A DNA stretch of 64,000 nucleotides from a virus (Duplodnaviria > Caudoviricetes): positions 2,327-66,326 of the IMG/VR virus record IMGVR_UViG_3300032321_001419; one strand, written 5' to 3'. Positions 796 through 59,451 of this stretch are shown here, piece after piece. Position 1 is the stretch's first letter. Each line of letters opens with the position of its first letter. The notes under the pieces were generated by a model. That model was given only the letters and a program-made list of their open reading frames with translations. It made no database searches and was not told the DNA's origin. A program made the translations under genes and the position numbers.

Positions 796-1752
796 CTACC
801 AAATAAATTTATTTTTATAATATTCTACTATGTATTTTAATTCTGTATCGAATAATACTTTAGGTTTCCATCCTAAGTTTCTTAGTTTGGTATCATCTAA
901 AGCATATCTTACATCTTGTCCTATTCTAGAGTAGCTTAAGTCAAGATATTTTTCTACGTCCTTATCTCCATTATATAATTTAATAACATTTAGTACGGTT
1001 TCAAAATTTGATCGCTCAAATCCTCCACAAATGTTATAAATTTCGTTTTCTTTACCACTTTCAATAATAGTAATAACTGCATTAGCAGTATCTTGAGCGT
1101 GTAACCAATTACGAATAGGTGTTCCACCATTATGTAGTGGTATTTTCTTTCCTAAATGTAAGTATTTAATTGTTTTAGGAATTAATTTTTCAACATATTG
1201 ACCAACACCATAATTGTTAGTTGGTCTTACAATAATATATGGTAAATCATAAGTTCTGTTCCAAGCCATTATTAACATATCAGCTGCTGCTTTAGTTGCT
1301 GAATATGGATTGCTTGGTTTTAATAAGTGTTTTTCATCATGAACTCCATCTGCTATATCTCCATATACTTCATCAGTACTGAAATGTAATAATATAGGTT
1401 TCTTAGTATTTTCTCCTCTATGGTTTTTTATTAGTTCTAAAAGAGTATGAACTCCATTTATATTAGAATGAACAAAGTCATCACTATTTGCAATTGAATT
1501 TCCTACGTGTGTTTCTGCTGCTGTATTAATAACATAATCACATTCATATAGGAACTTAAGATCGTTAATATCACAATTTACAAATGAAAAATTATCATAT
1601 TGTTTAAATTCTTCTAATAGCTGCTTATTAGCAGCATAGGTTATTTTATCAACTCCCTTTACATACCAACCTTTATCTAAACATGTTCTAGTAACATAGG
1701 ATCCAATGAATCCTAAGCAACCAGTTACATAAACTATTTTTTTATTTTCCAT
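796..1752 (-). CDS. rfbB: NDP-glucose 4,6-dehydratase (RmlB/RfbB-like extended SDR)
   Basis: VTGCLGFIG NAD motif, AAETHV, catalytic STDEVYG, YSATK (YxxxK), RPTNNYG, RNWLHA. Probable start is MENKK at 1752; the track start at 1779 overlaps the upstream gene. Confidence 0.85.
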   Translation of the reverse strand: MENKKIVYVTGCLGFIGSYVTRTCLDKGWYVKGVDKITYAANKQLLEEFKQYDNFSFVNCDINDLKFLYECDYVINTAAETHVGNSIANSDDFVHSNINGVHTLLELIKNHRGENTKKPILLHFSTDEVYGDIADGVHDEKHLLKPSNPYSATKAAADMLIMAWNRTYDLPYIIVRPTNNYGVGQYVEKLIPKTIKYLHLGKKIPLHNGGTPIRNWLHAQDTANAVITIIESGKENEIYNICGGFERSNFETVLNVIKLYNGDKDVEKYLDLSYSRIGQDVRYALDDTKLRNLGWKPKVLFDTELKYIVEYYKNKFIW

Positions 1753-2890
1753 TTTTAAAGAATTCTTTAATTTTATCACAAACGTAATCTACATCCTCTA
1801 AAGTCATTCCGTGGTGTGCTCCTAATAGGAAACCATTCTTCATGATTAAATCTGAATTAGTGAAGTCTTGTAAGTAATCTCTATAGATAGGGTGACGGGT
1901 TACGTTTCCAGCAAATGTTACTCGGGTTTGGATATTATTTTCTTCTAGGAATGTTAATAATTCTAAACGTCTTTCGGTTTGTAATGGAATAGCTAACCAG
2001 TTTGGTTCAATACTATCGTTAGGTAACAATATTTCTTCAACGTCTTTTAAGTTTTCCAAATAACGCTCAATGTTGGCTCGACGAATTTGTTTAAACGTTT
2101 CAAATCGCTCAATTTGCACTAATCCAAACGCGGCGTTCATCTCACAGCTTTTAAAGTTATAACCTAAAACATCATATAAGAATTTATGATCATAAGGGAT
2201 TCCATCAACAACGTGATTAAATCTATCGTCCATAATTTCAGAGTTGTCTCCCATACGGCCCCAATCTCTAAATTGTAAACATACATCACGTAATTTTTCA
2301 TCATTAAACATTACCATACCACCTGAACCACCTGCTGTGATAACGTGTGAGGCATAGAAACTAGTAGTTGAGATATCTGTATCTTCAGTATATGAAATAG
2401 TATCAGCTGAATCTTCAATTACAGTAATATCTTCTCTTCCAATGCGTTTCAATTCTGATTTTAATAGTTTCCAATCTGGTTTATTACCTATTAAATTAGG
2501 AACCATAATTGCTTTAACATCATTAGTAACAGCATCAATTATATCTTTAACTGTAGGAACATAATTTGTTAAGTCTACATCAACGAATACTGGAGTAAGA
2601 CCTAGCTGAATAATAGGGGCTAATGTGGTTGAAAATGTACAAGCAGGAGTAACTACTTTACTTCCTTTAGGTAATTTTAATACAGCTAAAGCTAAAAGAC
2701 ATGCTGATGAACCTGAATTAACAAATACACCATATTTCTTTCCAAATTCTTTAGCAATTTTTTCTTCAAACTCAATGGAGCGAGGACCAAATCCAGCTAA
2801 CCATCCATCTCTTAAACAAGCTTCTACTGCTTTAATTTCTTCTTCTCCGTAAGATTCAAACTTATTAGGAGCGTACCATACTTTTTTCAT
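1742..2890 (-). CDS. DegT/DnrJ/EryC1/StrS-family PLP/PMP enzyme, RfbH(DdhC)/ColD-like 3-dehydratase
   Basis: FVNSGSSA, PNLIGN, IEDSAD, TTSFYASHVITAGGSGG with His at the usual Schiff-base Lys position, RDWGR, GYN. Confidence 0.8.
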   Translation of the reverse strand: MKKVWYAPNKFESYGEEEIKAVEACLRDGWLAGFGPRSIEFEEKIAKEFGKKYGVFVNSGSSACLLALAVLKLPKGSKVVTPACTFSTTLAPIIQLGLTPVFVDVDLTNYVPTVKDIIDAVTNDVKAIMVPNLIGNKPDWKLLKSELKRIGREDITVIEDSADTISYTEDTDISTTSFYASHVITAGGSGGMVMFNDEKLRDVCLQFRDWGRMGDNSEIMDDRFNHVVDGIPYDHKFLYDVLGYNFKSCEMNAAFGLVQIERFETFKQIRRANIERYLENLKDVEEILLPNDSIEPNWLAIPLQTERRLELLTFLEENNIQTRVTFAGNVTRHPIYRDYLQDFTNSDLIMKNGFLLGAHHGMTLEDVDYVCDKIKEFFKNGK

Positions 2891-17770: not shown

Positions 17771-19462
17771 TTAGTTTTCTCTTCGTTCATGATCCTCATA
17801 ATACACAATTCTATTGTGCCATACAGGAGAAGCTAATAATATTGCAGGATTAATATTTCCTTTTTTAGTTTCTTGATATATGTAAGACATCCAAGTTTGT
17901 TCATATGGATGAGCCCAAGTTGTATCTAAAAACATTTTTTGATTTCCTGCTTTACTAACAATCATCGGCCAGTTAGCATAATATATTTCACCTGAAATGT
18001 AACTTAATTCATCTAATACATCTATTTCTTTAAATGATGTTCTAGGTGCATTTAGATCTAATCCTGTTATAGGAAGTTTATCATAATTAGGCCAATCTCT
18101 AGTTCTAATATCTTGAGGAACATTGTACCAAGATACTTGAATATTATTATCCATGTAAACCTCAGTAAATGATAATTTTAAGAAATCAAATTCCTCTTTT
18201 AACATAATTTTATGAACCTTATTATATAAATCAGGTACAAATTTTCTAAATCCGTTTCTACAGAAGTCATTGTCAGTAGAAGGATTAAATCCCATATCAT
18301 CCTCAAAGAAGAAATAAAAATCACTATCAGATTCTTGAAAATGTTCTGCTGCTAAAAATCTACCTCTATTAATACCTAGATTTTCATTAGTAATAATATG
18401 TTCAAAACCATACTTTTCACAGATTGCTTTATTGCCTTCTATTGCTTCTGGTTTGTTAGAATTATCAATTAAAATTTTTCTAGGTTTAGATAACCAATCA
18501 GGTGAATTTGCTTCCCAAGTAGCTAATGTGTGTTCTACTTGTTGAGGGAAGTTAAATGTTAACATATATAGAGAACTTTTTATATTCTCAGTACTAGGAT
18601 TATAAATTTTTACTTTAGGTTTATCACCAATTGGTGCTAATTCTACTTTATCATCAATTAAATCTTGAACAAATTTAACTACTAATCCATTTCCATCTAA
18701 TTCATATCGTCTATAAACTTCTGGTTTAAGATAAGACATAATGGTAAAGATACTTTCCTCAGTACCCATTAAACCTTGATCTAATGTTTGTCTTAATAGA
18801 GAATAATATTCTGAATTTGCTTCATGAATGAATTCTTTAGTACCACCAAATAAACCTCCTCTACAAACATAATTTACATCAGCTTGTGCAATTGAATCTA
18901 TTGGTCCTTTTTTAAAACCATGAATTTCATCATTTGTTTCATATGGGTAACTTAAGAATAAAAATGTATTTAAAAGTGGTGATATTTTGTCTAATACATC
19001 ATTTTCAGTAAAATATTTGTCATAAACTGTATTAGTAATACCAGCATCTAACCAAATAAATTTTTCTGTATTAAATGGGTTCCATATTGATACATCGTGT
19101 AATAAAAACATTTTAGATTGTACAATTGGATTATACCATTCAAGAGATGCTTGTGGAGATTGAGATAGCCATCCACCTTCTCCTGTTTGATTATACCAAT
19201 CTGGATTGTTTCTAATTTGTTGTGTTTTATCCCAATGAGGAGCATACATATTTTTTATGTCCTCTAACTCATATACTCTAACATAAGTATTTTCAGTAGA
19301 ACGCTTAGCCCATACTAAATGTTCATATTCTTTAGGAATAAAAATAAATAGATTTTGGGGTATATCTAGAAAATTATTGAAATGTTCAATATAATGGTCA
19401 AAAGAACGACCATTTCTACCAATATTCCATAATCCAGTAACAACTGTTAAATTTTTATCCAT
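17771..19462 (-). CDS. WlaTC/HtrL(YibB)-like glycosyltransferase fused to a second GT-A-like domain
   Basis: N-terminal half: VVTGLWNIGR, VQSKMFLL, FIWLDAG, GGLFGG, GTEESI. C-terminal half: LIDNS, NLGINRGR, YFFFEDD. Confidence 0.6.
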   Translation of the reverse strand: MDKNLTVVTGLWNIGRNGRSFDHYIEHFNNFLDIPQNLFIFIPKEYEHLVWAKRSTENTYVRVYELEDIKNMYAPHWDKTQQIRNNPDWYNQTGEGGWLSQSPQASLEWYNPIVQSKMFLLHDVSIWNPFNTEKFIWLDAGITNTVYDKYFTENDVLDKISPLLNTFLFLSYPYETNDEIHGFKKGPIDSIAQADVNYVCRGGLFGGTKEFIHEANSEYYSLLRQTLDQGLMGTEESIFTIMSYLKPEVYRRYELDGNGLVVKFVQDLIDDKVELAPIGDKPKVKIYNPSTENIKSSLYMLTFNFPQQVEHTLATWEANSPDWLSKPRKILIDNSNKPEAIEGNKAICEKYGFEHIITNENLGINRGRFLAAEHFQESDSDFYFFFEDDMGFNPSTDNDFCRNGFRKFVPDLYNKVHKIMLKEEFDFLKLSFTEVYMDNNIQVSWYNVPQDIRTRDWPNYDKLPITGLDLNAPRTSFKEIDVLDELSYISGEIYYANWPMIVSKAGNQKMFLDTTWAHPYEQTWMSYIYQETKKGNINPAILLASPVWHNRIVYYEDHERREN

Positions 19463-20265
19463 TATTTTAAGTAACCTGCGTGAACAAATTCCATGTAATT
19501 TTCATCAATTTGAGCTGCTCTATATAAATTACAGCCTTCTTGTCCTTCGTGTGAAGTATGTCTTAATACTGGAAATGTAGTTACACCTCCTTTTTCTTGC
19601 CATTGTTCTAAAGTAATTAATTGTTCCTCATGTGGATAATTTCGTACTAATTTCTTAATACCTTGTTTTCCCATATAAGCACCAATTAAAATATCATCAT
19701 TCCATGATTTTCCAATAAAATCGTCAAAATCATCTCCAAACCATTTACGTTTATATGCTACTGTTTTATAATGTTGCAGTATATTTACTTCAATATCTTT
19801 AGGTACCGATACTACATAATGGTTTCTTACATCAGGAAATACATTTGAATCTTCTGCTCTAGAACCATCATATCCAGTTGCTGTATCTACATAAATTTGT
19901 TGATTTTTAATTTGTTCAGCAACCATTCCTGGGTGATATACTAAGTCATCATCACATACAATGATAAGATCTTCAGGATCAGTTGATCTTTTTATAGCGT
20001 AATATGATTTAGTAATTGGTCCTAAATCTTCTAATCCTTCAAATATTTTAAATTTTGGATTTGTTGCTGCTAATTCTTTTAACCATTCTGGTATAACATA
20101 TGCTTCACCAGTGTGTTTTAATATTGTAGGAACATTGAAATGAATTTCATATTCTCCTTCGTAATCTTGATTCAATAATGAATTAATATTACTTTTAATA
20201 CCTTCATCGTATTCTTGAATTATTCGACTTGGTAATGTTGTTAATGTTACTATAACTTTGCTCAT
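19462..20265 (-). CDS. GT-A fold (GT2-like) glycosyltransferase
   Basis: VIVTLTTLPSRI, DLGPITK, IIVCDDDLVY, NDDILIG. Confidence 0.7.
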   Translation of the reverse strand: MSKVIVTLTTLPSRIIQEYDEGIKSNINSLLNQDYEGEYEIHFNVPTILKHTGEAYVIPEWLKELAATNPKFKIFEGLEDLGPITKSYYAIKRSTDPEDLIIVCDDDLVYHPGMVAEQIKNQQIYVDTATGYDGSRAEDSNVFPDVRNHYVVSVPKDIEVNILQHYKTVAYKRKWFGDDFDDFIGKSWNDDILIGAYMGKQGIKKLVRNYPHEEQLITLEQWQEKGGVTTFPVLRHTSHEGQEGCNLYRAAQIDENYMEFVHAGYLK

Positions 20266-20266
20266 C

Positions 20267-21112
20267 TTATTTTTCTGTAAAAATTATATCGTGATTATGT
20301 ATTAATGCGTAAATATAGTCATCTGCTCTTCCATATCCATCTCCACTTAATTGTCTAAATTCATAAAAACCTGAATTAGGGTAAGGTAAAGAATATACTA
20401 TTGGAAATGATGCTGCTCCTCTGCCACTATCATTTACTGGTCTCCAATCTGTTTCTTTATCCCAAGTAACACATCTGATGTCTATTTGGTTCTTTTTGAA
20501 ATAATATCCTACAAGTGTATCATCATTAGTTGAAGATAATAAAAATTCTCTGCTTAGAAAATCTTCTCCGAAAAAGCTTCTTCTATATCCTACTGAATGC
20601 CAATGTCCTGGTATTAGTAATTGTAAATCATTTTTAACTGGGAAGTAAAGGTGAGTAGATTTTAAACAATATTTTTTAACTCCATCTTCAATCCATTCTC
20701 TTTTTTCTACAGGTATATCTCCTCTAAAAGCTGTTGCTGATGTTGGAAATTGATTTAATTTTTGTAAATGATATTCTAACATATCTTCATGATACACGTG
20801 ATCATCATCACAAACAATTAAAATATCATTAGGATCTGTTGAAATTCCTAATACTCCTGTAATTTTACATACAGGACCCCAATCTTCTTCAATTCTATTG
20901 ATAATTAATTTAGGATATTCATTAGCTAATTGTTGTAATTCTTCAGATATAATATATTCTTCATCATTATTATTTTTATAACGATAAGGAACATTTAATA
21001 CAACTTTATAATCGTGAGATGTATTTTGATTTAATAAAGATAACAAATTTTGTTTAGAAGATTCCCATAATTGCATTCTTACAGGAACTGTTGTTAAAGA
21101 TATATAAATCAT
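20267..21112 (-). CDS. GT-A fold (GT2-like) glycosyltransferase, paralog of 19462..20265
   Basis: IYISLTTVPVRM, DWGPVCK, IVCDDDHVY, NDDTLVG. Confidence 0.7.
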   Translation of the reverse strand: MIYISLTTVPVRMQLWESSKQNLLSLLNQNTSHDYKVVLNVPYRYKNNNDEEYIISEELQQLANEYPKLIINRIEEDWGPVCKITGVLGISTDPNDILIVCDDDHVYHEDMLEYHLQKLNQFPTSATAFRGDIPVEKREWIEDGVKKYCLKSTHLYFPVKNDLQLLIPGHWHSVGYRRSFFGEDFLSREFLLSSTNDDTLVGYYFKKNQIDIRCVTWDKETDWRPVNDSGRGAASFPIVYSLPYPNSGFYEFRQLSGDGYGRADDYIYALIHNHDIIFTEK

Positions 21113-21113
21113 A

Positions 21114-21983
21114 TTAGAATTGTTTTAAAAAACTTAAATCACATTCATCAAGTGATGGATTATTTGGAAAATCTACACCAACAATTGGATAATCTTGATT
21201 ATCTGGTGTGTATTCCGTTATATATCTGCGGTTTACAAATGATAATTCAGGTACTCTTGGTACTTTATGTCCTTCATAATCAAACTCTCCACCCCAATTA
21301 TTACCATGAATGTGAACTAGTACAAAGTGTTTGTTTAATTTTTCTAAAATTTCAACTAATTTTGTTTGATTATCAGGTTGCTCAATCCAATGTACTTCAA
21401 CTACAATACCGCAAGTAAATGATGCTAAATCATCAACATCTACATTTAAGAAATAATCAAATTCAGCTCCTTCAGTATCAATTTTTAAGAATATATCTCC
21501 TTCAATACCAAAGCGATTATAATGTTCTCTAACATCTTTAACACTCATAGCATTAATTAGATTATTAGAAGACTCTAAAACTGTATTTAAAATATCTCTA
21601 TATTTTCTTATGTTTGTTGTGCTTTTATCTTCATTTAATTCATTAAAAGCATTATTTAAAGTATCTTTTCTACTATATAATTCATTAAAATATAATTGTT
21701 CTTTTTCTGTAGTAGATACGCTTGAACCTAATCCTTCAGCAAAGAAATGTTGAAGACCATTATCCCAGTTATCCTGGTGTACAGTATGGTCAAATAAATA
21801 GTTAGGTTTATTGTACTTAGCAATAAAATCATCTTCATATGTTTTATCTCCGCCATATCCATAAGTGAATAAAGCAACACATTTTTCTAATACCAATTCA
21901 GGTATTACATATCCACCATCGCTTTCGTTTCCTAAACGAACTTTTGGTGAATTAATTAATTGGGGTTTTAGGTATCTTAGCAT
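21114..21983 (-). CDS. FkbM-like SAM methyltransferase
   Basis: RLGNESDGGY, FTYGYG, FLKIDTEGAE, IVVEVH, VHIHGNN, ELSFVN. Confidence 0.7.
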   Translation of the reverse strand: MLRYLKPQLINSPKVRLGNESDGGYVIPELVLEKCVALFTYGYGGDKTYEDDFIAKYNKPNYLFDHTVHQDNWDNGLQHFFAEGLGSSVSTTEKEQLYFNELYSRKDTLNNAFNELNEDKSTTNIRKYRDILNTVLESSNNLINAMSVKDVREHYNRFGIEGDIFLKIDTEGAEFDYFLNVDVDDLASFTCGIVVEVHWIEQPDNQTKLVEILEKLNKHFVLVHIHGNNWGGEFDYEGHKVPRVPELSFVNRRYITEYTPDNQDYPIVGVDFPNNPSLDECDLSFLKQF

Positions 21984-21985
21984 AA

Positions 21986-22972
21986 TTAATAAGGGAATTC
22001 TTGTGAGTGATCTATATAATATTTTTTTAATTTTTCGTAATTTTTTTCAATAAAATCTTGTTTTCCTATTCTTGATAGTTCAAAATTTTGACCCCAATTC
22101 CAAAATCTATCTTCTGGATATGAAGTAGTTCTAAATGAGCGGTAAGGATGAAAACCTATATCTTCATTCCATTCAAAAGTTATAACACCCATTAAATTAA
22201 ATAGTACAGATAAAATATATTCTGAATGAACATTCCACATACTATGAACTCCAAAGATAAAATATTCTTCTTTTTTTCTTACTAAAACATCATATACTAT
22301 ATTATTTAACAATTCAAAAAAAGGAATAATCATGTTTTTATCAGGAAATTTAAATGCTCTAAAATTTCCATCCATTACAACAAAATGATCAGTTATTTCT
22401 TTATCAGTAATTTTATAATCATTATTTATACTATGAGCAAATTCTCTTAAATGTGGTATATGATGTTCATCATAACTACTACCTGCTGGAGTCATTATAA
22501 TTTTATTTTCTAAATTTTCTCCTAAATCATAAATTGGATGTTTTGTAAAGGGAGTGGTAAAAAATGTTTCAATTTTTTGATACCATTCATCATCCATAAC
22601 AGGTAAAATATCACAATCCATAAAAATGAATCCTTCATAATTAGTAAAGTTTTCCCATTTCCACGCCCAACGTCTTATTAAAGTTGGAATTTTTATATTT
22701 TCTTCTATAAATTCAGTTGCATAAGCAGCTTCATCTACTTTTTCTTTTGGAATTACTTCTAATTCAAGTGACCAAGGATAATCTTTTCGTATTTCATTTA
22801 TGTCTTTAAGTATTATATTAGACCTATCAGAAACTGAATCGAAAAATTCAACATCATTAGTTAATATAAGTACATCAAAACGATTATAAGCAGGATAAGT
22901 ATTTAAATTATGTAATAATCTTGCTTTATGAGTTGGTCCTACTGTAAATTGTACTATTAGTATTTTATTCAT
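21986..22972 (-). CDS. Putative GT-A glycosyltransferase
   Basis: VLILTND, FIFMDCD (DxD); located inside the GT island. Confidence 0.45.
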   Translation of the reverse strand: MNKILIVQFTVGPTHKARLLHNLNTYPAYNRFDVLILTNDVEFFDSVSDRSNIILKDINEIRKDYPWSLELEVIPKEKVDEAAYATEFIEENIKIPTLIRRWAWKWENFTNYEGFIFMDCDILPVMDDEWYQKIETFFTTPFTKHPIYDLGENLENKIIMTPAGSSYDEHHIPHLREFAHSINNDYKITDKEITDHFVVMDGNFRAFKFPDKNMIIPFFELLNNIVYDVLVRKKEEYFIFGVHSMWNVHSEYILSVLFNLMGVITFEWNEDIGFHPYRSFRTTSYPEDRFWNWGQNFELSRIGKQDFIEKNYEKLKKYYIDHSQEFPY

Positions 22973-24234
22973 TATTTTATAATTGTTTCTTTACGTTCAC
23001 ACCAGCCTCTTTCATTACTATAAGCCCATAGTACTACTTTGGTAGGATTTTTTTCTACTAAAACCGATTCTTCAAAATCAAAATATCCGTTTGGTTGAGA
23101 TAATGCCATTTTTACAAATTCCTTATCTAAAGATCTATTATAAATAGGTAATCCATTTTCATCATCAAATGCTAAATGAATAAATTCATAATCATCATGA
23201 GGGAAGTCAGCTTTTATAATCTGTACTAAATGATAGAATGATTTTAATAATGAATCTTCCCAATTCTCTACTGGAGGATTAGGAGGATAATTATTGTCTG
23301 TAGTGTATTTTTGTACTGATTTATTTTTAAAATCAACACCTGCATATTTTTCATAATCATGAATGCTACGAACAGTACCTAAGTCATATCCGGTTAAATC
23401 ATAACCATTATCTTCTACTCTAAATAGTTGTCTAATTTTGGCACGTGCTTTTTCTTGTTTATTCCACCAGTCAACACCTCTTTTAGCATCATCGTCCCAC
23501 TTTAACATTCCATTACGTTCTTCTCTCATAGTAGCGTGCCATACTACTAATTCATGAGGATGGAACATATCGTATCCGTGAGTATATGATCTAACTGTTA
23601 AGTTAATTTCCTCTCCACTAAAATAGATATCAGGATCGTGTTTTATTTCTTTAGCCCATTCCGCTCTAGCAAAACAAAAATGTCCTGATAGAAATCTTGA
23701 TGGAGGTGGTTCAGTCATGTTTTGCCATCCAGTTAGTAATCCTGGTCTGATAAAAATTGTACCATGAGGATAAAAACAAACAAATGTTTGTTGCCAAGGT
23801 TCCATTGTTCTTCCAGCGGGATCGTTGAACGGATCATAATATGGCAAGTAGGCAGCTAAAATTGGTTTATGTCCTTTACGCTCGAGACCTGCGTGCATTT
23901 TTATTAGTGTCACGTCCCAATTTTTAGCAAATCTGTGATGAGAATCTAATTGACAAATATAATCTTCATCAGTTAATAATTCCTCATTTATAATAGCTCT
24001 TGCCCAGGGTAATCCTTGAGCTTCAGTATATAATACATCCTTAATTTTAAATCTAGGATCGTTTCTATATTCATCTACATTATCAAATTCATCTTCAGGA
24101 TGATATTGTCTGCAAATACCAAAATGAATTCTTTCAGGGTATTTAGCATTTTCTAATGCTGATTTAATTGTAGGAATTAATTCTGGCTCTCTATACGCTG
24201 GTAAATGAACTAGTATTGTATCTTTCTTACTCAT
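22972..24234 (-). CDS. GT60-like (PF11397 GlcNAc) polypeptide HexNAc-transferase
   Basis: ILVHLPAYREPE, RIHFGI, QLDSHHRF (DxH), WD, FLSGHFCF, HDPDIYFSGEE, RSYTHGYD..HP. Confidence 0.75.
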   Translation of the reverse strand: MSKKDTILVHLPAYREPELIPTIKSALENAKYPERIHFGICRQYHPEDEFDNVDEYRNDPRFKIKDVLYTEAQGLPWARAIINEELLTDEDYICQLDSHHRFAKNWDVTLIKMHAGLERKGHKPILAAYLPYYDPFNDPAGRTMEPWQQTFVCFYPHGTIFIRPGLLTGWQNMTEPPPSRFLSGHFCFARAEWAKEIKHDPDIYFSGEEINLTVRSYTHGYDMFHPHELVVWHATMREERNGMLKWDDDAKRGVDWWNKQEKARAKIRQLFRVEDNGYDLTGYDLGTVRSIHDYEKYAGVDFKNKSVQKYTTDNNYPPNPPVENWEDSLLKSFYHLVQIIKADFPHDDYEFIHLAFDDENGLPIYNRSLDKEFVKMALSQPNGYFDFEESVLVEKNPTKVVLWAYSNERGWCERKETIIK

Positions 24235-25495
24235 AAGCTATAACTGTTTCTATTCTATCACACCATCCTTTAGATTCACTATAAGGCCATACTCTCCAAG
24301 AATGTGGTTTTTTATTGTCTTCATACTCTCTCCAAATATGAATAAATTGATCATTAGGATCTGATTTTAATAAACCTTGTATTTCATTAGTTTCAGCATC
24401 TTGTCTATAAATGTCATTACCATTTTCATCTAATAATGCTACAGCAAAACTAGTATAATCAGTTTCTAGTAAAGATCCTTTATAAACATCAATACAAACT
24501 TTTTGTTGTACTAATAAATTATCAAAAAAGTCTTCCCATGATTCTTCAGGCATTGGAAGTGGTTTATATTCATAAGTATGTCTATGTACTTTACGTTTTC
24601 TAAATCTAACACCAGCATAACGCTCGTATTCTTCTAAAGTACGTTCTTCACCAAAGCCAAATTCTGCTAGTTTTTTCTGTTGGCAAGGAGTACATCCTTC
24701 TTCCATACCAAATAATTGTCTATATCTTAAATAAGATTGAGAATCTCTTTCAGGCCAAGTTGAATCATCATCCCATTGTTTAATTTTTCCGTTTCTAGTA
24801 TATTCGTGCCAAATAACAGGAATATGAGGATGAAATAAATCATAACCAAAGGTAAATGATCTAGCAGCTAATGAAGATTCTTCACCGTGAAAATAATATT
24901 TGGGATCGTATTTAACTTCTTTAGCCCATTGACCTAAAGTAAAAACAAAATGAGCTGAGAAGAATCGAGCCATAATAGGTTCTTGTACTTCTTGCCAGTT
25001 AGTTTGACTATGTGGTTTTATAAAGATAGGACCTTGAGGTAAAAATCTATCAAATTCTAAAGTCCAAATTTCTTGTAATTTAGATTCATTTGATGGTTCA
25101 TATGAAGGAAGATAAGCTGTTAATAATGGTTTTTTATGACCTTTTTTCTGTAGGTCTTTAAACATTTTAATTAAAGTTATATCCCAATTTTTAACAAATC
25201 TATGATGTGAATCTAATTGAAGATAATATGTTTCATCTTTATATAAACCTTGAATTAAATTTCGAGCCCAACATACACCTTCAGCATCTTTATAATTAAT
25301 ATCTTCAATAGTAAATCTAGGATCGTCTTTATACTCATCTAAATTATCCCATTCATCATCTGTTGAATGTTGCCATGCAATTCCAAATCTAAGATTTTCT
25401 GGGTGTTTAGCTTTATCTAAACAGTCTTTAAGAGTTTTAAGTAATTCAGGATCTCTATATGCTGCTATAGAAATGAATATTGTGTTTTTTGACAT
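24227..25495 (-). CDS. GT60-like (PF11397 GlcNAc) polypeptide HexNAc-transferase, paralog
   Basis: IFISIAAYRDPE, NLRFGI, GVCWAR, QLDSHHRF, FFSAHFVF, YDPKYYFHGEE, RSFTFGYD..HP. Confidence 0.75.
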   Translation of the reverse strand: MSKNTIFISIAAYRDPELLKTLKDCLDKAKHPENLRFGIAWQHSTDDEWDNLDEYKDDPRFTIEDINYKDAEGVCWARNLIQGLYKDETYYLQLDSHHRFVKNWDITLIKMFKDLQKKGHKKPLLTAYLPSYEPSNESKLQEIWTLEFDRFLPQGPIFIKPHSQTNWQEVQEPIMARFFSAHFVFTLGQWAKEVKYDPKYYFHGEESSLAARSFTFGYDLFHPHIPVIWHEYTRNGKIKQWDDDSTWPERDSQSYLRYRQLFGMEEGCTPCQQKKLAEFGFGEERTLEEYERYAGVRFRKRKVHRHTYEYKPLPMPEESWEDFFDNLLVQQKVCIDVYKGSLLETDYTSFAVALLDENGNDIYRQDAETNEIQGLLKSDPNDQFIHIWREYEDNKKPHSWRVWPYSESKGWCDRIETVIAYE

Positions 25496-25536
25496 AACGT
25501 ATTAATATAACTATTGTTGTATATAAATATATAATT

Positions 25537-25863
25537 TTATACAGAAAACGATTCTCCACAACCACAAGTTCTTGTAGCATTAGGATTATTAAAACTAAAT
25601 CCTTTGCCATTTAAACCATCTGTAAAATCAAGTTCGGTGCCGGCTAGATATAAAAAAGATTTCATGTCTAAAGTAATTTTGATACCGTTGTCTTCAAAAA
25701 ACTGGTCGCCCGTTTTTACTTCGTTATCAAAATCTAAATTATACGATAAGCCAGAGCAACCCCCACCTTTTACAGAAACCCGTAAAAAGTACGAAGCGTC
25801 TAAGCCGGCTTCTTGTATGAGGTTTAATACTTTTTCTTTTGCTTTATTGGTAATAATTACCAT
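25537..25863 (-). CDS. iscA: A-type Fe-S carrier (IscA/HesB)
   Basis: LRVSVKGGGCSGLSY, YLAGTELDF, NPNATRTCGCGESF. Confidence 0.95.
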   Translation of the reverse strand: MVIITNKAKEKVLNLIQEAGLDASYFLRVSVKGGGCSGLSYNLDFDNEVKTGDQFFEDNGIKITLDMKSFLYLAGTELDFTDGLNGKGFSFNNPNATRTCGCGESFSV

Positions 25864-25865
25864 TT

Positions 25866-26279
25866 TTAGTGATGAGTTTTTTTACTCTCAATGGGAGCTA
25901 AGCCATTTTTTACACGGTAATCGTTAATGGCGGCTTTAATTGCATCTTCGGCTAATACCGAGCAGTGAATTTTTACTGGTGGTAAAGCCAATTCCTCTAC
26001 AATATCCATATTATCGATCGTCATTGCATCGTCAATTGATCTGCCTTTTAACCATTCGGTAGCCAACGAAGATGAAGCAATGGCTGAGCCACAGCCGAAG
26101 GTTTTAAACTTCGCATCGGTAATTACATTGTTGCTATCTACCTCAATTTGCAAACGCATTACGTCGCCACACTCTGGTGCGCCAACTAAGCCTGTACCTA
26201 CATTGTTCTTGCTCTTATCAAGCGTACCAACGTTACGTGGATTGGTGTAATGATCAATTACTTTATCTGAATATGCCAT
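25866..26279 (-). CDS. iscU: Fe-S scaffold IscU
   Basis: YSDKVIDHYTNPRNVG, GAPECGDVMRLQI, KFKTFGCGSAIASSS, LPPVKIHCSVLAEDAIKAAI. Confidence 0.97.
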   Translation of the reverse strand: MAYSDKVIDHYTNPRNVGTLDKSKNNVGTGLVGAPECGDVMRLQIEVDSNNVITDAKFKTFGCGSAIASSSLATEWLKGRSIDDAMTIDNMDIVEELALPPVKIHCSVLAEDAIKAAINDYRVKNGLAPIESKKTHH

Positions 26280-30643: not shown

Positions 30644-31300
30644 CTATTGGAATATAATTTTTAAACTATCAATTATGTGTGTTCTTTCAGGATAAGTTAA
30701 TGAATAGTTCCCGCATTCCCAACTAATTTTTGCATATACTTTTACAGTATCTCCAATCATTGTTACTGGTATAGGACCAATAATTCTTTTACTCCACATA
30801 TTATTAGAGCTAGGTTGATATTCATCCATTCTAGCATCGTAATCTTTAAGATATATTCCTGTTGGAGGAACTAGAGGTACTATTTGTCCATTAAATTGAG
30901 ATAATGTTATTGTTTTAGTTCCTACTGAAATAGGTGTATTAAAATATGGTGAAGTATATAAACTACTAAATGGATTATACAGTGGTAAAGTTACTACTAA
31001 ATTTTCACCTATAATCCAATAAGAATCACTATCAAATCTAGCTTCTACAACAGATATTCCATTATAGATATATCTTTCATTTGTAATTTTACTTGCTTCA
31101 ACAAATATATTGTTGTAACTGTATGGATCATTTGGATTTAAAGTAACATGATAATATCCATTATTGTCTTTTGGATATTTCATAGCTAATTTAACTACTC
31201 CTCTATCAGTACCAGTAAAGGGAGATGGGTACTTTATCTCTTCTTTCTTACATCCAAATAATGTAAGAATCCCTAATAATATTACATAACCTTTTTTCAT
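30644..31300 (-). CDS. Predicted lipoprotein
   Basis: MKK + hydrophobic stretch + lipobox LFG-C, followed by KKEE. Confidence 0.65.
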   Translation of the reverse strand: MKKGYVILLGILTLFGCKKEEIKYPSPFTGTDRGVVKLAMKYPKDNNGYYHVTLNPNDPYSYNNIFVEASKITNERYIYNGISVVEARFDSDSYWIIGENLVVTLPLYNPFSSLYTSPYFNTPISVGTKTITLSQFNGQIVPLVPPTGIYLKDYDARMDEYQPSSNNMWSKRIIGPIPVTMIGDTVKVYAKISWECGNYSLTYPERTHIIDSLKIIFQ

Positions 31301-31318
31301 ATTAGAAATATATGAAAA

Positions 31319-31486
31319 TTATTTTGACAACACAGTATTATCTTTTTGGTGTTTAGGAGTATAGGGACAATGTTTACATCCACTACCACAACATTGACCT
31401 CTATTCTTTAAATAGAGTTCAGTAAACACTATTTTCCCGTTATCGAGATAATAGTGTCTACCTTGTTCAAACTCTACTTTTTCCAT
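31319..31486 (-). CDS. DUF5522-like Cys-rich small protein, 55 aa; not in the track
   Basis: MEKVEFEQGRHYYLDNGKIVFTELYLKNRGQCCGSGCKHCPY... Confidence 0.7.
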   Translation of the reverse strand: MEKVEFEQGRHYYLDNGKIVFTELYLKNRGQCCGSGCKHCPYTPKHQKDNTVLSK

Positions 31487-31487
31487 A

Positions 31488-33338: not shown

Positions 33339-33360
33339 CTTGTTTATTTATTAATTAAGT

Positions 33361-33621
33361 TTATTTATATTGATTTATTAAATTTATTATTTCGCCTTTT
33401 GGTTTAATACCAGAAAAACGATTCACAACTACTCCGTCTTTTTCGATTATAACCGTTGGCACACTAGATACAGAATACTGGAAAGCAAGATCTTTACTTG
33501 AATCCACATCTACATCAGTGAATGAAACTCCATTTATTTCTGATCTAACTTGATCGAATATTGGAGCTAACATTTTGCATGGACCACACCATGATGCTGA
33601 AAATTTTATTACTCTTGTCAT
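33361..33621 (-). CDS. trxA: Thioredoxin
   Basis: FSASWCGPCKML, SVPT. Confidence 0.93.
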   Translation of the reverse strand: MTRVIKFSASWCGPCKMLAPIFDQVRSEINGVSFTDVDVDSSKDLAFQYSVSSVPTVIIEKDGVVVNRFSGIKPKGEIINLINQYK

Positions 33622-33661
33622 AAATTTTATTTGTTGGGTCCATAAATATTATGGATGATTT

Positions 33662-35032: not shown

Positions 35033-35050
35033 AACTTTTATTTATTTTTA

Positions 35051-35080
35051 AATATACTAAAACGTACTCAGATAACCAAA
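35051..35080 (-). promoter_or_regulatory. Bacteroidota-type promoter upstream of the helicase
   Basis: Minus strand TTTG-N20-TATATT. Confidence 0.5.
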
Positions 35081-37151: not shown

Positions 37152-37164
37152 AACTTGTTTTTAG

Positions 37165-37989: not shown

Positions 37990-38053
37990 AATGTAACTTT
38001 TTAATTTTAATTTTATAACCTATTGAATATAATAACCTTTATTGTGACAATCA

Positions 38054-38503
38054 CTAAAGATTGACCACTTTGTTTATCTTAGTATCTAATCTACGAAGGT
38101 CTTCTCCGGTAGTCAAGAGAATACAGTTCTTATAGTCATACCAATTAATACGATACTGAGTATCTAGCACTCCTCCGTTTAAGGATTTAATTAGAGTATT
38201 TAATGCATTAATTGTGTATAATGTATTAGATTCCTTTTTGCGATGTAATAATATCGTATTTGGGAGGGGTTGAGATGATACGTTTCCCGTGTCAATATTA
38301 TATGTGCAGACTAATTCATCAGAATCAGGAGATTCAAGAACGAATATCTTGTTAAATAATATTGAATATTTGCTACTGATCGTGCTTATAGTTTCATCTA
38401 CCGCAGAAGGTGATGTAAATGTGCAAAATAATTTGTTCAAAATATTCTCGGTTGATATATCCGAGATAAATATGTCAGAATACTCGAAAACAACGCTACG
38501 CAT
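38054..38503 (-). CDS. Hypothetical protein, 149 aa
   Basis: KLFCTF...HRKKESNTLYTINALN; located in the replication cluster. Confidence 0.6.
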   Translation of the reverse strand: MRSVVFEYSDIFISDISTENILNKLFCTFTSPSAVDETISTISSKYSILFNKIFVLESPDSDELVCTYNIDTGNVSSQPLPNTILLHRKKESNTLYTINALNTLIKSLNGGVLDTQYRINWYDYKNCILLTTGEDLRRLDTKINKVVNL

Positions 38504-54946: not shown

Positions 54947-56029
54947 TTAAGTACTTATACTTATACCAGCAGTCATATAAATTGTTCCGCTATGTCCTCC
55001 TGTTACTGTATAAACTGCTTCTGCTGATGCATTTAGTCCGCTTGCTGTTTGTGATGCATATTGTCCGCCTCCAAGTGTAGAACCTATTTGAGCACTAGCA
55101 TTTCTACATGGACCAGCAGGTGCTTTTGGTCCAATTGTGTGTTGTACGGTAAGAGTATCACCAACTAATGCGGTAAATGTTCCACTACCATCTGTGTTAC
55201 CACCAGCTATAGATCCAAGTCTACTTGATATAATTGAGAAAGTGTTACCTGTACATCCTGTAATACCACCCGCTGACCAATTGACTGTAAATCCTACTGA
55301 TGGAGATGCAGAAGGTGTTCTTGTAGGTGTGACTGTTGGTGTTAATGATGGAGAAGCAGCAGGTCTAGATACACTTATAGATGGTGTAACTGATGGTGTT
55401 CTAGTAATACTTGGTGTTAAGCTTATACTTGGTGTTAGAGTAATAGATGGAGTAATTGAAATTGATGGTGTTATACTTGGGGTTCTTGTAATTGAAGGAG
55501 TAATAGATATACTTGGTGTAATTGATATACTTGGTGTAATACTTGGAGTAATTGATATTGAAGGTGTTATACTGATACTTGGGGTTATAGATATTGATGG
55601 TGTAATACTAGGCGTTCTAGTGATTGATGGTGTAATTGAGATTGAAGGTGTTATTGAAATTGATGGTGTAATTGAAATTGATGGTGTTATACTAGGTGTT
55701 AATGTTATACTTGGAGTAATAGTAATTGATGGTGTAATAGACGGTGTTAATGAAGGTGTTCTACTTACAGTAATAGTAGGAGTAATTGATGGAGTAATTG
55801 TAATTGAAGGTGTTACTGAAGGTGATGTTGGAACAGCAGCATGATTATAACCATACCAACTACTAATTGTAAATGGGGCACTTGGTGTTGGTTTATAAAA
55901 TGAGTTTTGATTTATAGCAATGTATAATCCTAAAGAAGAAGAAGCTAATGTTAAAGGAGCCTGAGATGGTATTCCCAACTCAGTCCTAATATCATTCATT
56001 CCTAAGCTTCCGGATAATGGTAAGGTCAT
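54947..56029 (-). CDS. Distal tail-fibre/adhesin-type virion protein with a mucin-like Ser/Thr/Pro tract
   Basis: N-terminus MTLPLSGSLGMNDIRTELG, as often seen after S74 fibres; central TPSI(x)(x) repeats; beta-rich C-terminal domain; translationally coupled to the fibre gene. Confidence 0.65.
   Translation of the reverse strand: MTLPLSGSLGMNDIRTELGIPSQAPLTLASSSLGLYIAINQNSFYKPTPSAPFTISSWYGYNHAAVPTSPSVTPSITITPSITPTITVSRTPSLTPSITPSITITPSITLTPSITPSISITPSISITPSISITPSITRTPSITPSISITPSISITPSISITPSITPSISITPSISITPSITRTPSITPSISITPSITLTPSISLTPSITRTPSVTPSISVSRPAASPSLTPTVTPTRTPSASPSVGFTVNWSAGGITGCTGNTFSIISSRLGSIAGGNTDGSGTFTALVGDTLTVQHTIGPKAPAGPCRNASAQIGSTLGGGQYASQTASGLNASAEAVYTVTGGHSGTIYMTAGISIST
55300..55830 (-). 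repeat. Imperfect 12/18-bp tandem repeat encoding about 30 TPS units (TPSI, TPSISI, TPSITR, TPSITL)
   Basis: Repeated plus-strand units such as attgatggtgtaatt and atacttggtgtaatt. Confidence 0.9.
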
Positions 56030-59000
56030 TACTTATTTTTGATTATGTCTTGTAACTCTTTAATTTGTTCCTGTTGTTCTTTAATAGCTTGTATTAATAA
56101 AGGAACTATTTTTTCGTATTTAACGGCTTTATATCCATTATCACGAGTAGTTACTACTTCAGGTAATATACTTTCAATTTCTTGAGCAATAATTCCAACA
56201 TCATGTCCTTTAAATCCATGTAAAGATACTAACTTTTCTTCAGTTTTCCAATCAAATGTGTAACCACCTATTTTATCTAGTTTGTCTAAAGCATTTGGTA
56301 TTGGGGTGATATTTTCTTTAAATCTAATATCTGAAGTTGAAAATGCTACAACATCATTAGAGGCATCAATTCTACCAACTGTTGCTGATGGATTAATAGA
56401 ACCTACTGCTAAACTTTGTCCCATAGTAATACCTCCACTACCACTTATAGTCATTCTTACAGCAGCTGTACTAACATCTATGAATCGTAAAGAAGGTGTT
56501 GAAGTATTACCATAAACATCTATATACCAACCGTTAACACCATCTAAAGCTCTAGCAAAACTTACTTGTCCTCCTTCATTTGTATTATCAATTCTTCCTG
56601 CAAATATTTCTCCATTATAAACATTTAAACTTCCTGTTATATTAACAGATCCTGTAAATACTTGAGTATTTGCTAATGAGTTTCCAAATACGTTAGATCC
56701 ACTACTATATATAACACTACTTGTTATTGTTTGTACAATTAATGTTTGTGCTGTAAGTGTGCCTGTTGAAGTTAGTGAACCTGATAGAAATAATGAACCT
56801 GTTACTGAGTGGTTATCGCTTGGTTGATTTCCTATTTTAGTCCCTGTATCTGTTACTTGAAAATCAATTGCACTGCCTGAAAATACTGTTAATGAACTAG
56901 AAATTACTGTACTTCCTGTTACTACTAGAGATCCTGAGATTAATACACTTCCAGCAACATCTAAATAATATCCTGATGTAATACTACCTTTACCTAAACC
57001 TAATGAACCTGTGGCACCATTAGCTACTATTCTATTTGTACTTATGTTAGCAGTTCTAACTCCAACACCTGTTGCTACGAATAATGGATATCTTAAAGCA
57101 TCTAATGCATTACCCGAAACATTTATAAATGATGCAGTATCTGCTAATGAAGCAGTAGCAGCATATGATGCACTCAACACAGACATTGAACTAGTTTGAC
57201 TGTTTTTAACAAACGAACTAGTAACACTATTTAAACTAGATGTATATGTGTTTATACTTGAGGTATAGGCATTTAATGAAGATGTAGTTGCATAAGTACC
57301 ATTTAAGTTATTTTGAGATGCAGTATATGATAATATACTTGCACTAAAATTATTTAAACTTGAAGTATAAGCATTAAGTGCAGTAAATGTTGCGAAGGCT
57401 CCTGTTTGAGAGTTTTGTACAAATGAACTTGTTTGTGAATTTAACACAAATGAGCTAGTTGCGGTATTTAATGAACTAGTATAAGAATTTATACTTGATG
57501 TATAAGCATTAAATGAACTTGTTAATAATAATGATCCAGTATCTATATTTTGAGTATTAAGAGCAAATGAAGCTGTTGCAGCAAATGATGCACTTAATAC
57601 AGACATTGAAGATGTTTGTGAGTTTAATACAAATGCTCCCGTTTGATTTGTTAAGATAACATTACTTCCATTTACAGATAACGAACCTGAAATACTAATA
57701 CTTCCACTTAAAGATGCTGCTCCACTAGTATATAAAGATCCTGTGAATATTAATGTATCTGCATTTGTACTCAACAGAGTAGTGCCGGAGGTACCAGTGA
57801 ATGTGGTTGAACCGCTTACATTTAAAGAACCAGTGATATTTTCAGTTCCTATAAAATTATTAGATCCTGTTGTTGCAAATGAAGATGTTTTAGCATTTAG
57901 ACTTGATGTATAAGTGTTTATACTAGAAGTATAAGCATTTAATGCTGTGAATGTAGCAAAAGCACCAGTAGCACTATTTAAAGAACTTGTGTATGTATTA
58001 ATACTGCTTGTATAGGCATTTAATGCTGTAAATGTTGCAAACGAAGATGTTTGAGAGTTTTGAACAAATGAAGATGTTTGTGAGTTTAATACAAATGAGC
58101 TTGTTTGATTTGTTAATACAGCATTTGAACCATTTACAGATAATGAACCCGTTATAATAACAGATCCTGTTAATACTTGTGTATTGGCTAAATCATTACC
58201 AAACCTATTTGAACCACTTGAGTATATTACACTTGATGATACAGTTTGTACAACTAATGTTTGTGCTGTAATAGTACCTGTTGAAGTTAATGAACCTGAT
58301 AATAATAATGAACCTGTTACTGTATGATTATCAGAAGGAGCATTTCCTATTTTAGTACCAGCATCTGTTACTTGAAAATCAATTACACTACCTGAGAATA
58401 CTGTTAATGAACCTGATATTAATGCATTTCCTCCAACATCTAGAATATAACCTGATGCTATAGTAGATTTATTAATACCCATTGAACCGGTAGCTGAGTT
58501 TACTATAAACCTTTGTGTAGTTATGTTAGGAGTTCTATTTCCTGCACCTGTTGCTGCCCATACTAAATATCTTGTAGCATCTCCTGTATTATTAACGACT
58601 GCTATTGTTGTTGCAACATCTGCTGTTGTTGCTAATGACGCGGATCTTGCATATGATGCACTTAAAGCATTTGAAGCATATGATGCTGTTCCTGTTAAAT
58701 TTCCTGTAAAAGAAGGTGCTAATATTGCAACTGAGGATGAAACTTGAGAGTTATTTATTTCAAATACAGTACTTCCTATTGGTGCTGGGTTAGATCCTGT
58801 TACTACTGATCCAGTATATTGATATCCTAAACTGTTATATGAATTAAATTTAAATGTACCAGGAAAATTACCAAATGTTAGACCTTGATTGTAGTATGGA
58901 TTATTAATAATATATGAACTTTTATAAATTCCGGATGGTTGGTTTTCATCAGTATTATAACTCCAGAATTCAATACTTGTTCCTGGAACTTTACTTCCAA

Positions 59001-59451
59001 CTGATGTAGATTCATTTCTTAGAGTTAATGCTGTTGGAGGTATTTCAGTAAAGGTATCAGGAATTGAAATCGTTGCAGAACCAGTAAATATTGAATTACC
59101 GACTACAGTTAAATTAGTAGAAGCTGATGAAGAAATTAGTAAAGATCCTGTTATTGTTTGGTTTCCATTAAAATTATTTGAACCCGTAGTTGCAAATGAA
59201 CTAGTTTTACTGTTTAAACTAGAGGTATATGTGTTTATACTAGAAGTATAAGCATTAAATGATGATGTTGTTGTAAACGATGATGTTTGTGAATTTAAAA
59301 CAAATGCTGTTGAATTTAATCCGTCTAATAAATCTGCATTAGAAGCATATGAAGAGGTACCTAACAGAGAACCTGTGATACCATTAATTACGTTTAACGA
59401 ATTTAAATTTGCATCCGATCCGGATACAATGACTTTTTTCCAACTTGGCAT
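56029..59451 (-). CDS. Long tail fibre with C-terminal peptidase S74 intramolecular chaperone
   Basis: TGS-rich beta repeats and an internal duplication; C-terminal SDIRFKENI...GYTFDW...GIIAQEIE..LPE.V...YKAVKYEKIVPLLIQAIKE. Confidence 0.85.
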   Translation of the reverse strand: MPSWKKVIVSGSDANLNSLNVINGITGSLLGTSSYASNADLLDGLNSTAFVLNSQTSSFTTTSSFNAYTSSINTYTSSLNSKTSSFATTGSNNFNGNQTITGSLLISSSASTNLTVVGNSIFTGSATISIPDTFTEIPPTALTLRNESTSVGSKVPGTSIEFWSYNTDENQPSGIYKSSYIINNPYYNQGLTFGNFPGTFKFNSYNSLGYQYTGSVVTGSNPAPIGSTVFEINNSQVSSSVAILAPSFTGNLTGTASYASNALSASYARSASLATTADVATTIAVVNNTGDATRYLVWAATGAGNRTPNITTQRFIVNSATGSMGINKSTIASGYILDVGGNALISGSLTVFSGSVIDFQVTDAGTKIGNAPSDNHTVTGSLLLSGSLTSTGTITAQTLVVQTVSSSVIYSSGSNRFGNDLANTQVLTGSVIITGSLSVNGSNAVLTNQTSSFVLNSQTSSFVQNSQTSSFATFTALNAYTSSINTYTSSLNSATGAFATFTALNAYTSSINTYTSSLNAKTSSFATTGSNNFIGTENITGSLNVSGSTTFTGTSGTTLLSTNADTLIFTGSLYTSGAASLSGSISISGSLSVNGSNVILTNQTGAFVLNSQTSSMSVLSASFAATASFALNTQNIDTGSLLLTSSFNAYTSSINSYTSSLNTATSSFVLNSQTSSFVQNSQTGAFATFTALNAYTSSLNNFSASILSYTASQNNLNGTYATTSSLNAYTSSINTYTSSLNSVTSSFVKNSQTSSMSVLSASYAATASLADTASFINVSGNALDALRYPLFVATGVGVRTANISTNRIVANGATGSLGLGKGSITSGYYLDVAGSVLISGSLVVTGSTVISSSLTVFSGSAIDFQVTDTGTKIGNQPSDNHSVTGSLFLSGSLTSTGTLTAQTLIVQTITSSVIYSSGSNVFGNSLANTQVFTGSVNITGSLNVYNGEIFAGRIDNTNEGGQVSFARALDGVNGWYIDVYGNTSTPSLRFIDVSTAAVRMTISGSGGITMGQSLAVGSINPSATVGRIDASNDVVAFSTSDIRFKENITPIPNALDKLDKIGGYTFDWKTEEKLVSLHGFKGHDVGIIAQEIESILPEVVTTRDNGYKAVKYEKIVPLLIQAIKEQQEQIKELQDIIKNK

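Follow-up and report, generated by a model that had tools for sequence, protein, structure and literature searches.

The window analysed here, 64 kb of a 66-kb IMG/VR viral record (IMGVR_UViG_3300032321_001419) with an estimated completeness of 39%, carries two tandem genes for enzymes of glycosyltransferase (GT) family GT60 and, at a distance from them, a gene for a protein with a long tract of Thr-Pro-Ser or Thr-Pro-Thr (TP[ST]) units. From comparative and structural evidence, the phage's own TP[ST] tracts are the probable glycosylation target of the GT60 enzymes, a reading to which a probability of about 0.7 was given. GT60 enzymes and long Thr-Pro-Ser repeat proteins co-occur in dozens of phage genomes, and a large number of environmental phages are therefore likely to produce mucin-like glycoproteins of their own.

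Both GT60 genes lie on the minus strand, GT60-A (P0002, 422 aa) at 24227..25495 and GT60-B (P0001, 420 aa) at 22972..24234, and their open reading frames (ORFs) share an 8-nt overlap. An earlier sequence-only reading of this DNA had described two paralogues of about 420 aa with common motifs and a common C-terminal domain, and had called them GT60-like; both statements were borne out, and both paralogues are full-length. The two proteins aligned end to end with 43% identity (E 5e-114), the C-terminal ~100 residues included, and QLDSHHRF and YF[SH]GEE were found in both, the latter in the form YFHGEE in P0002. In a hidden Markov model search, the PF11397 profile ('GlcNAc', GT60) matched P0001 with 172.3 bits (E 2.5e-50) and P0002 with 229.6 bits, far over the cut-off of 21 bits, and profile positions 1-45 and ~91-351 were covered. 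Because phrog_24687 was matched end to end by both proteins, the C-terminal ~100 residues are regarded as a fixed part of the subfamily that lies outside the Pfam model.

In P0002 the GT-A catalytic domain takes up residues ~1-300 and is joined by a linker to an FN3/Ig-like beta-sandwich at the C-terminus (~327-418); P0001 has the same architecture. The DSH motif is located at residues 95-97 in P0002 and 97-99 in P0001. Residues D95, H97, E205, E206 and H230 were invariant across 45 homologues, and the DSH, GEE and HPH motifs are intact in P0001; D95-S-H97 and H230 are proposed as the metal-binding residues. The closest fold to the AlphaFold2 model was that of GT27, the mucin-type initiating transferases, by a clear margin, and the modelled GT-A fold is specifically nearest to enzymes that initiate mucin-type O-glycans. 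At the sequence level, neither paralogue matched any PDB chain, GT27 included, at E<=1; PF00535 (Glycos_transf_2) gave 15.3 bits with P0001, under the cut-off, and no match with P0002, so that GT27 membership by sequence was not found, and no NCBIfam model matched either protein. The C-terminal domain, a beta-sandwich of ~95 residues, gave generic FN3/Ig-like matches only. The sequence-only reading had cast it as the counterpart of the lectin module of polypeptide N-acetylgalactosaminyltransferases; this role gained no support, no sign of a ricin-type lectin having been seen, and, given an FN3/Ig-like beta-sandwich with generic matches, any lectin role would be a guess. Membrane-like segments were absent from all island proteins.

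The GT60 homologue family is very large: clustering at 90% identity gives over 5,500 groups, and at 50% there are 4,612 representatives; the clusters nearest to it are 80-97% viral. GT60-B orthologues form a distinct type. Across 37 IMG/VR loci, an A-type gene usually has a B-type gene as its immediate downstream neighbour, as is the case in most loci of freshwater type, and the A-then-B order was recorded in L005-L010, L012-L015, L018-L022, L035, L037, L038, L040 and L041. Fused GT60 chains were also seen, 900-2,460 aa long and each holding two to four catalytic domains (P0124-P0128, P0133, P0134), among which P0124 (899 aa) looks like a fused A-B pair. A homologue 42% identical to P0002 is present on a 6.8-kb contig of a giant-virus metagenome-assembled genome bin (L036, IMGVR_UViG_GVMAG-M-3300027963-47_000001). 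Cultured phages with a homologue number four, all of them jumbo phages of Xanthomonas or Stenotrophomonas (XacN1, Xoo-sp13, CM1, RAS14) with a single GT60 copy.

The candidate acceptor, P0003 (360 aa; 54947..56029, minus strand), was characterized from its translation and from unit counts. It comprises an N-terminal head of ~65 aa, a TP[ST] tract of ~175 aa and a C-terminal beta-rich domain of ~115 aa. The tract holds 31 TP[ST] units, mostly TPSISI or TPSI, in agreement with the count of about 30 repeats given earlier for these coordinates, and the 360 aa contain 24 overlapping matches to the triple pattern TP[ST]-x(1-3)-TP[ST]-x(1-3)-TP[ST]; the window's other ORFs have no triple-pattern match and no more than 3 TP[ST] each. 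Upstream lies the gene for a 1140-aa tail-fibre protein (56029..59451, minus strand) with a C-terminal Peptidase_S74 intramolecular chaperone domain (PF13884, E 3e-16; tail-fibre PHROGs), whose TAA stop is overlapped by 1 nt by the ATG of P0003 in a TAATG junction, so that the two genes are translationally coupled. The fibre proteins neighbouring P0003 contain 26-31% Ser+Thr, as expected from the earlier description of Ser/Thr-rich fibres. Its gene position beside the tail-fibre gene makes P0003 a putative virion substrate.

No homologue of P0003 was detected at E<=1 in five GT60-negative relatives, and in other GT60-positive phages P0003 was matched through the tract alone, within proteins of 250 to 5,472 aa. 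Judged from these matches, the GT60 link is to the tract and not to one protein. The sole match of the TP[ST]-tract proteins, phrog_15511 (unknown function), falls on the tract itself. Two tract proteins of different phages (L035 7961-9961, L010 5647-6870) have an N-terminal domain in common with a conserved DDGNGN...H(I/V)GNI(F/I)Y.Q(G/A)I(A/V)(V/T)ITN.DY signature and no Pfam or PHROG function, which may be a common anchor of glycosylated stalks. Giant TP[ST] ORFs occur in GT60-positive jumbo-phage records, one of 2,940 aa (G001:C1:~31100-39300; 616 pattern matches per record) and one of 5,472 aa extending over at least ~108-124 kb of G004 (950 pattern matches per record); in both, repeat matches recur over much of the length.

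The proposed genomic co-occurrence of GT60 with TPS-repeat genes was examined in two directions, and it held in both. Neither of the two computational outcomes that the earlier reading had named as refuting, no GT60 match and no genomic co-occurrence, was thus obtained. For the forward test, a DNA pattern for TP[ST]-x(1-3)-TP[ST]-x(1-3)-TP[ST] was counted over whole records. Tracts were present in 17/20 GT60-positive records (counts of 616, 27, 185, 950, 17, 149, 218, 15, 75, 75, 75, 169, 3, 921, 1, 68 and 64) versus 0/22 GT60-negative relatives found through their family B polymerase (PolB), with a Fisher p of 4e-9 over related and partly near-duplicate records. The three zeros among the positives were fragments with 21-25% completeness; among the 22 negatives were seven records with a completeness of 90% or more and two jumbo genomes, 266 and 312 kb in size. 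The reversed-pattern control gave zero in every record. For the reverse test, all viral contigs were scanned for four consecutive TP[ST]x units, giving an arbitrary sample from which records of >=40 kb were taken, and a like-for-like control scan used nine collagen-type Gly-x-y units. PF11397 was found in 16/38 (42%) of the TP[ST]-selected records, and in 13/19 of those of >=100 kb, versus 1/32 (3%; a weak, divergent match) of the collagen-repeat controls and 0/13 of the complete genomes among them (p 1.5e-4 overall, 3e-4 for large records).

On a quick maximum-likelihood PolB tree (IQ-TREE), the state with both GT60 and TP[ST] tracts was found at three separate places within the window's own PolB clade: the window itself, sister to G022, which has neither (support 100); G030 plus G031; and G021/G023, sister to G018 plus G019, which again have neither (support 99). 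As read from this tree, the combined state would have been gained or lost independently at the three places. G022, the closest long relative, keeps the gene order of the window over the reductase, the deazaguanine genes, PolB, Hsp20, GroEL and the clamp loader, with proteins 44-86% identical (most 65-86%); the whole block 17771-26279 is missing from it as a clean indel, with ~1.4 kb in its place. Several GT60-positive records contain no close PolB homologue, and the marine and Xanthomonas lineages are 27-30% identical in PolB; tracts occur in all these groups, so that the module and the tracts are shared by several unrelated phage groups.

In six loci, representing at least five distinct phages, TP[ST]-tract ORFs adjoin the module on the same strand. 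The tract ORF of L008 (at least 1,242 aa, 118 units) ends 55 bp before GT60-A; those of L009/L010 (1,021 aa, 88 units) and L035 (667 aa, 37 units) likewise adjoin the module, those of L005 and L038 come immediately after the HtrL-like gene described below, and that of L011 comes immediately after GT60. In the window the GT60 module and the tract gene are 30 kb apart, and in XacN1 the corresponding genes are dispersed, so the co-occurrence is not merely co-transfer of one cassette. XacN1 ORF334 is a GT60 homologue, 41% identical over 98% of P0002, with the HtrL-like homologue ORF330 near it, and TP[ST] tracts are encoded by ORF350, by ORF369, ORF370 and ORF372 (directly downstream of the sheath genes) and by ORF384, of 2,823 aa. 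Virions of XacN1 contain at least two periodic acid-Schiff-positive proteins (Yoshikawa et al. 2018, PMC5852040), and the authors of that study suggested that phage glycosyltransferases make them. In the Xanthomonas jumbo phages, a 765-aa carbamoyltransferase gene directly follows GT60 (L042 10415-12712, XacN1 ORF333; L043 10396-12693, Xoo-sp13_303), a gene arrangement that suggests carbamoylated glycans in this lineage.

The remaining genes of the GT60 island, all on the minus strand, differ in how closely they follow GT60. An HtrL_YibB-like two-domain protein of 563 aa (17771..19462; PF09612 over residues 4-251) has nearest clusters that are 97-99% viral, some of them annotated GT2, and its gene lies within a few kb of GT60 in most of the 37 IMG/VR loci. 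Among 40 whole records, an HtrL-like homologue was present in 18/22 GT60-positive versus 0/18 GT60-negative ones; of the four exceptions, two have a weaker PF11397 match (E 2.5e-37 in an 820-aa ORF; E 1.2e-21), and the other two are a record with its GT60 gene ~2 kb from the contig end and a provirus. Two GT2-like glycosyltransferase paralogues of 267 and 281 aa (19462..21112; weak PF00535 matches) have counterparts only in some GT60 loci (L009, L010, L014, L019-L022, L035, L037, L038, L041), and the FkbM-type methyltransferase of 289 aa (21114..21983; PF05050, E 2.9e-6) is likewise restricted to a subset, as a variable accessory. A 328-aa accessory protein (21986..22972), with orthologues in L009, L010, L035 and L037, had no Pfam, NCBIfam or PHROG match. 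Judged by these distributions, GT60, in one or two copies, and the HtrL-like gene form the core that co-varies, with the HtrL-like protein viewed as the obligate partner of GT60, and the rest of the island is variable. The earlier proposal that the neighbouring glycosyltransferases and the methyltransferase extend and cap the glycan is accordingly to be amended in its cast: the conserved partner is the HtrL-like enzyme, and the GT2-like enzymes and the methyltransferase are variable accessories.

The proposed pathway would run as follows. P0001 and P0002 would act as soluble, cytoplasmic, metal-dependent GT-A transferases carrying N-acetylhexosamine (HexNAc) from its uridine diphosphate (UDP) form to polypeptide, with UDP-N-acetylglucosamine (UDP-GlcNAc) as the most likely donor, and would start O-linked glycans on Thr/Ser hydroxyls of the P0003 tract (54947-56029) prior to assembly. 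The paralogues may split the labour between naked peptide and already glycosylated tract, or between Thr and Ser, like GT27 isoenzymes, and the FN3/Ig-like C-terminal domain may help to grip the extended tract. The HtrL-like enzyme would then add the next sugar or sugars, and the variable GT2-like enzymes and the FkbM methyltransferase would extend and finally cap the chain. The product would be a stiff, hydrated, protease-resistant bottle-brush stalk on a fibre-associated protein.

An unlikely, though not negligible, alternative is that the GT60/HtrL module acts on other targets, namely host proteins, a host envelope glycan (for receptor masking or superinfection exclusion, as has been proposed for cyanophage lipopolysaccharide-gene islands) or other phage proteins, and that the TP[ST] proteins co-occur with it as part of one accessory 'surface' tool-kit. 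The island is indeed accessory and sits in the early/replication region, not in the structural module; nucleotide-sugar genes and further glycosyltransferases stand alongside, as is typical of polysaccharide islands; and TP[ST] tracts also occur in complete genomes without GT60. The island, however, contains no membrane segments, flippase, polymerase or lipid-carrier-priming transferase, the characterized GT60 enzymes all act on polypeptides (PMC8724618, PMC6939170), and the modelled fold is nearest to polypeptide transferases by a clear margin. Action on other targets also leaves unexplained the all-or-none co-variation with the tracts and the direct adjacency of tract genes. The sugar might instead be placed, as by Gnt1 on Skp1, on 4-hydroxyproline of the TP[ST] units after prolyl hydroxylation and not on Thr/Ser. 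The Gnt1 branch of GT60 is hydroxyproline-specific (PMC6939170) and every repeat unit contains a Pro, but PF13640, the profile for 2-oxoglutarate oxygenases of the prolyl 4-hydroxylase (P4H) type, is absent from the near-complete GT60-positive G004, G043, G078 and XacN1 and present in several GT60-negative relatives, and the window, as far as annotated, gave no P4H-type oxygenase. The lack of co-variation between P4H-type oxygenases and GT60 leaves the hydroxyproline route unsupported; it was judged quite improbable, although a host enzyme might carry out the hydroxylation.

The genomic setting brings up DNA as an acceptor, in the form of glycosylation of a hydroxymethylated pyrimidine or a 7-deazaguanine derivative for evasion of restriction. 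The GT60 island lies between PolB and a dCTP-deaminase-like gene with FolE, QueC, DpdA-like and QueD genes, the marine and Xanthomonas lineages likewise have GT60 near PolB, and a gene for DUF1599 ('nucleotide modification associated domain 1') is close to GT60 in many loci. In a survey of base modification that took QueC as its marker, QueC was nevertheless found in eight GT60-negative relatives and was absent from most GT60-positive records; the deazaguanine and GT60 systems are therefore independent, and a link between them was rejected. G022, moreover, keeps its deazaguanine cluster and PolB intact with the GT block missing, and the modelled GT-A fold of polypeptide-transferase type speaks against a nucleic-acid acceptor, which would also leave the link to the tracts unexplained. 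This possibility was considered very improbable.

Several points count against glycosylation of the TP[ST] tracts as well. Neither sugar transfer nor a glycan or modified residue is on record for this phage or its homologues, and the donor sugar would not be readable from sequence. The presence of P0003 in the virion is presumed from gene position, and Pfam and PHROG gave no functional annotation for the TP[ST]-tract proteins. Five of the nine complete TP[ST]-selected genomes are without GT60, so tracts can exist without the enzyme, and the Fisher p-values overstate independence because the records are related and partly redundant. The location of the island among replication genes beside PolB in three lineages, and DUF1599 near GT60 in many jumbo loci, would fit a nucleic-acid target also. 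In XacN1, the stained bands are not assigned to proteins and the phage has a second glycosyltransferase (PMC5852040).

The window has ~30% G+C, and the minus strand carries nearly all genes. It encodes a T4-like replication set (family B polymerase, clamp loader, helicase, RNase H-type nuclease, UvsX-like and gp32-like proteins, ribonucleotide reductase), GroEL, Hsp20, IscA and IscU, a deazaguanine cluster of FolE, QueC, DpdA-like and QueD, and a contractile-tail module with the Peptidase_S74 fibre. No cultured phage was near at the DNA level by megablast, and the nearest cultured phage by polymerase, Microcystis phage Mel-JY01, was 36% identical to the window PolB. In several relatives (L101-L105, L112) the PolB match spans 3.3-3.8 kb, not 2.6 kb, with 46 stops in the span of L112, which suggests that inteins, introns or homing endonucleases have been inserted into the polymerase gene. 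A nucleoside diphosphate (NDP)-sugar 4,6-dehydratase and a DegT-family enzyme, identified by Pfam matches, are encoded at 796..2890 on the minus strand; orthologues with 70-77% identity lie inside the GT60 island of unrelated jumbo-phage records (L019-L021, L041), and the pair was not found in G022, the closest GT60-negative relative. The two enzymes may feed an unusual sugar to the glycan, although their membership of the system is uncertain; confinement of the orthologues to the GT60 island of an unrelated jumbo lineage hints, from gene content, at a common sugar supply.

The first GT island of the window contains a 486-aa GT4-like (GT-B) protein (6268-7728; and 4964-6265), which was found at 41-80% identity in every GT60-negative relative tested and is a core gene of the PolB lineage. 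Joining both GT islands in one pathway was rejected for this gene (6268-7728), since a lineage core gene kept in all GT60-negative relatives stands outside the GT60 system. This conserved GT-B enzyme occurs in deazaguanine-carrying phages near a PD-(D/E)XK nuclease and DUF1599, and could act on DNA. The DUF1599 gene of the window is at 8934-9284; in many jumbo-phage loci (L012-L022, L034, L037, L040 and L041) such a gene is found on the strand opposite to the GT60 pair, 1-2.5 kb upstream of it. IscA-like and IscU/NifU-like genes (25537-26279) are missing from G022 along with the GT island, so these Fe-S assembly genes may be accessory indel cargo.

Phage-encoded protein glycosylation has been documented for few phages only, with other enzyme families, and the GT60 module, represented in thousands of metagenome sequence clusters, almost all of them viral, predicts enzyme and acceptor together. 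If the proposal is true, the fibres or fibrils of many aquatic and jumbo phages would be mucin-like and heavily glycosylated, with consequences for adsorption, stability, stickiness of the particles, resistance to proteases and immune recognition; initiation of the mucin type would reach from eukaryotes to bacterial viruses, and soluble enzymes of the bacterial cytoplasm would become available for O-glycosylated repeat proteins. A wider view is offered tentatively, and as doubtful at present: that true mucin-like glycoproteins are produced by an unrecognized large class of environmental and jumbo phages, with giant carriers in some cases (1,000-5,500 aa, largely TP[ST]), by way of a cytoplasmic pathway that the phages encode themselves, that GT60 initiates and that has an HtrL-like protein as its dedicated second enzyme, and that this phage enzyme family is the prokaryotic-virus counterpart, possibly the evolutionary source or sink, of the eukaryotic GT60/GT27 machinery. 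The idea can be put to a direct test in cultured relatives, namely XacN1, Xoo-sp13 and the Stenotrophomonas phages CM1 and RAS14.

Among known systems, the closest in family are the GT60 enzymes of protists, polypeptide (pp)-alpha-GlcNAc transferases that start mucin-type O-glycans and differ from GT27 mainly by the missing ricin domain (PMC8724618), one branch of which modifies hydroxyproline of Skp1 (Gnt1; PMC6939170). The phage enzymes resemble those of Dictyostelium and the pp-alpha-GlcNAc transferases of Trypanosoma cruzi, as well as Gnt1, in their PF11397 match, in a DxH-type metal motif and in having no detected ricin-type lectin domain; the Gnt1 branch is, in addition, soluble and cytoplasmic, and Thr/Pro-rich repeats (mucins) or a Pro adjacent to Thr serve as acceptors. 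They differ in being phage-encoded, with a predicted activity that would be exerted in the bacterial cytoplasm, in a conserved extra FN3/Ig-like C-terminal domain, in frequently being tandem paralogues or multi-domain fusions, and in having an HtrL-like partner (in 18/22 records) without an accompanying phage P4H. From the GT27 GalNAc-transferases of animals and apicomplexans they are set apart by the lack of detectable sequence similarity, by a C-terminal module that appears to be a beta-sandwich of ~95 residues and not a ricin beta-trefoil of ~130 residues, and by not being type II membrane proteins.

In the capsid glycosylation of chlorovirus PBCV-1, the virus brings its own glycosyltransferases, often with methyltransferases, which act in the host cytoplasm. 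Mycobacteriophage virions are reportedly O-glycosylated too, and Freeman et al. 2023 (cited in PMC10877033) reportedly described structural proteins decorated there by virus-encoded glycosyltransferases. The likeness would lie in the use of the virus's own glycosyltransferases, often with methyltransferases, for its own proteins. Here, unlike in those systems, the initiating family is GT60, the candidate acceptors are long tandem TP[ST] tracts within large proteins of diverse kinds and not short tails of capsid or tail-tube subunits, and the module is mostly outside the structural gene cluster and widespread in uncultivated aquatic-type and jumbo phages. XacN1 shares with the window a GT60 homologue (ORF334), an HtrL-like protein (ORF330) and TP[ST] tracts, there in several large ORFs and together with periodic acid-Schiff-positive virion proteins, and differs in its single GT60 copy with the carbamoyltransferase adjoining; its authors drew no link from the enzyme family to the repeat tracts. 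No description of GT60/PF11397 in phages, nor of a comparable phage O-glycosylation system, was found in the searchable literature. Relative to all these systems, what is new is that the enzymes come from phages, have a conserved FN3-like domain, occur as tandem or fused copies, are accompanied by the HtrL-like partner and have TP[ST] tracts as their predicted acceptors.

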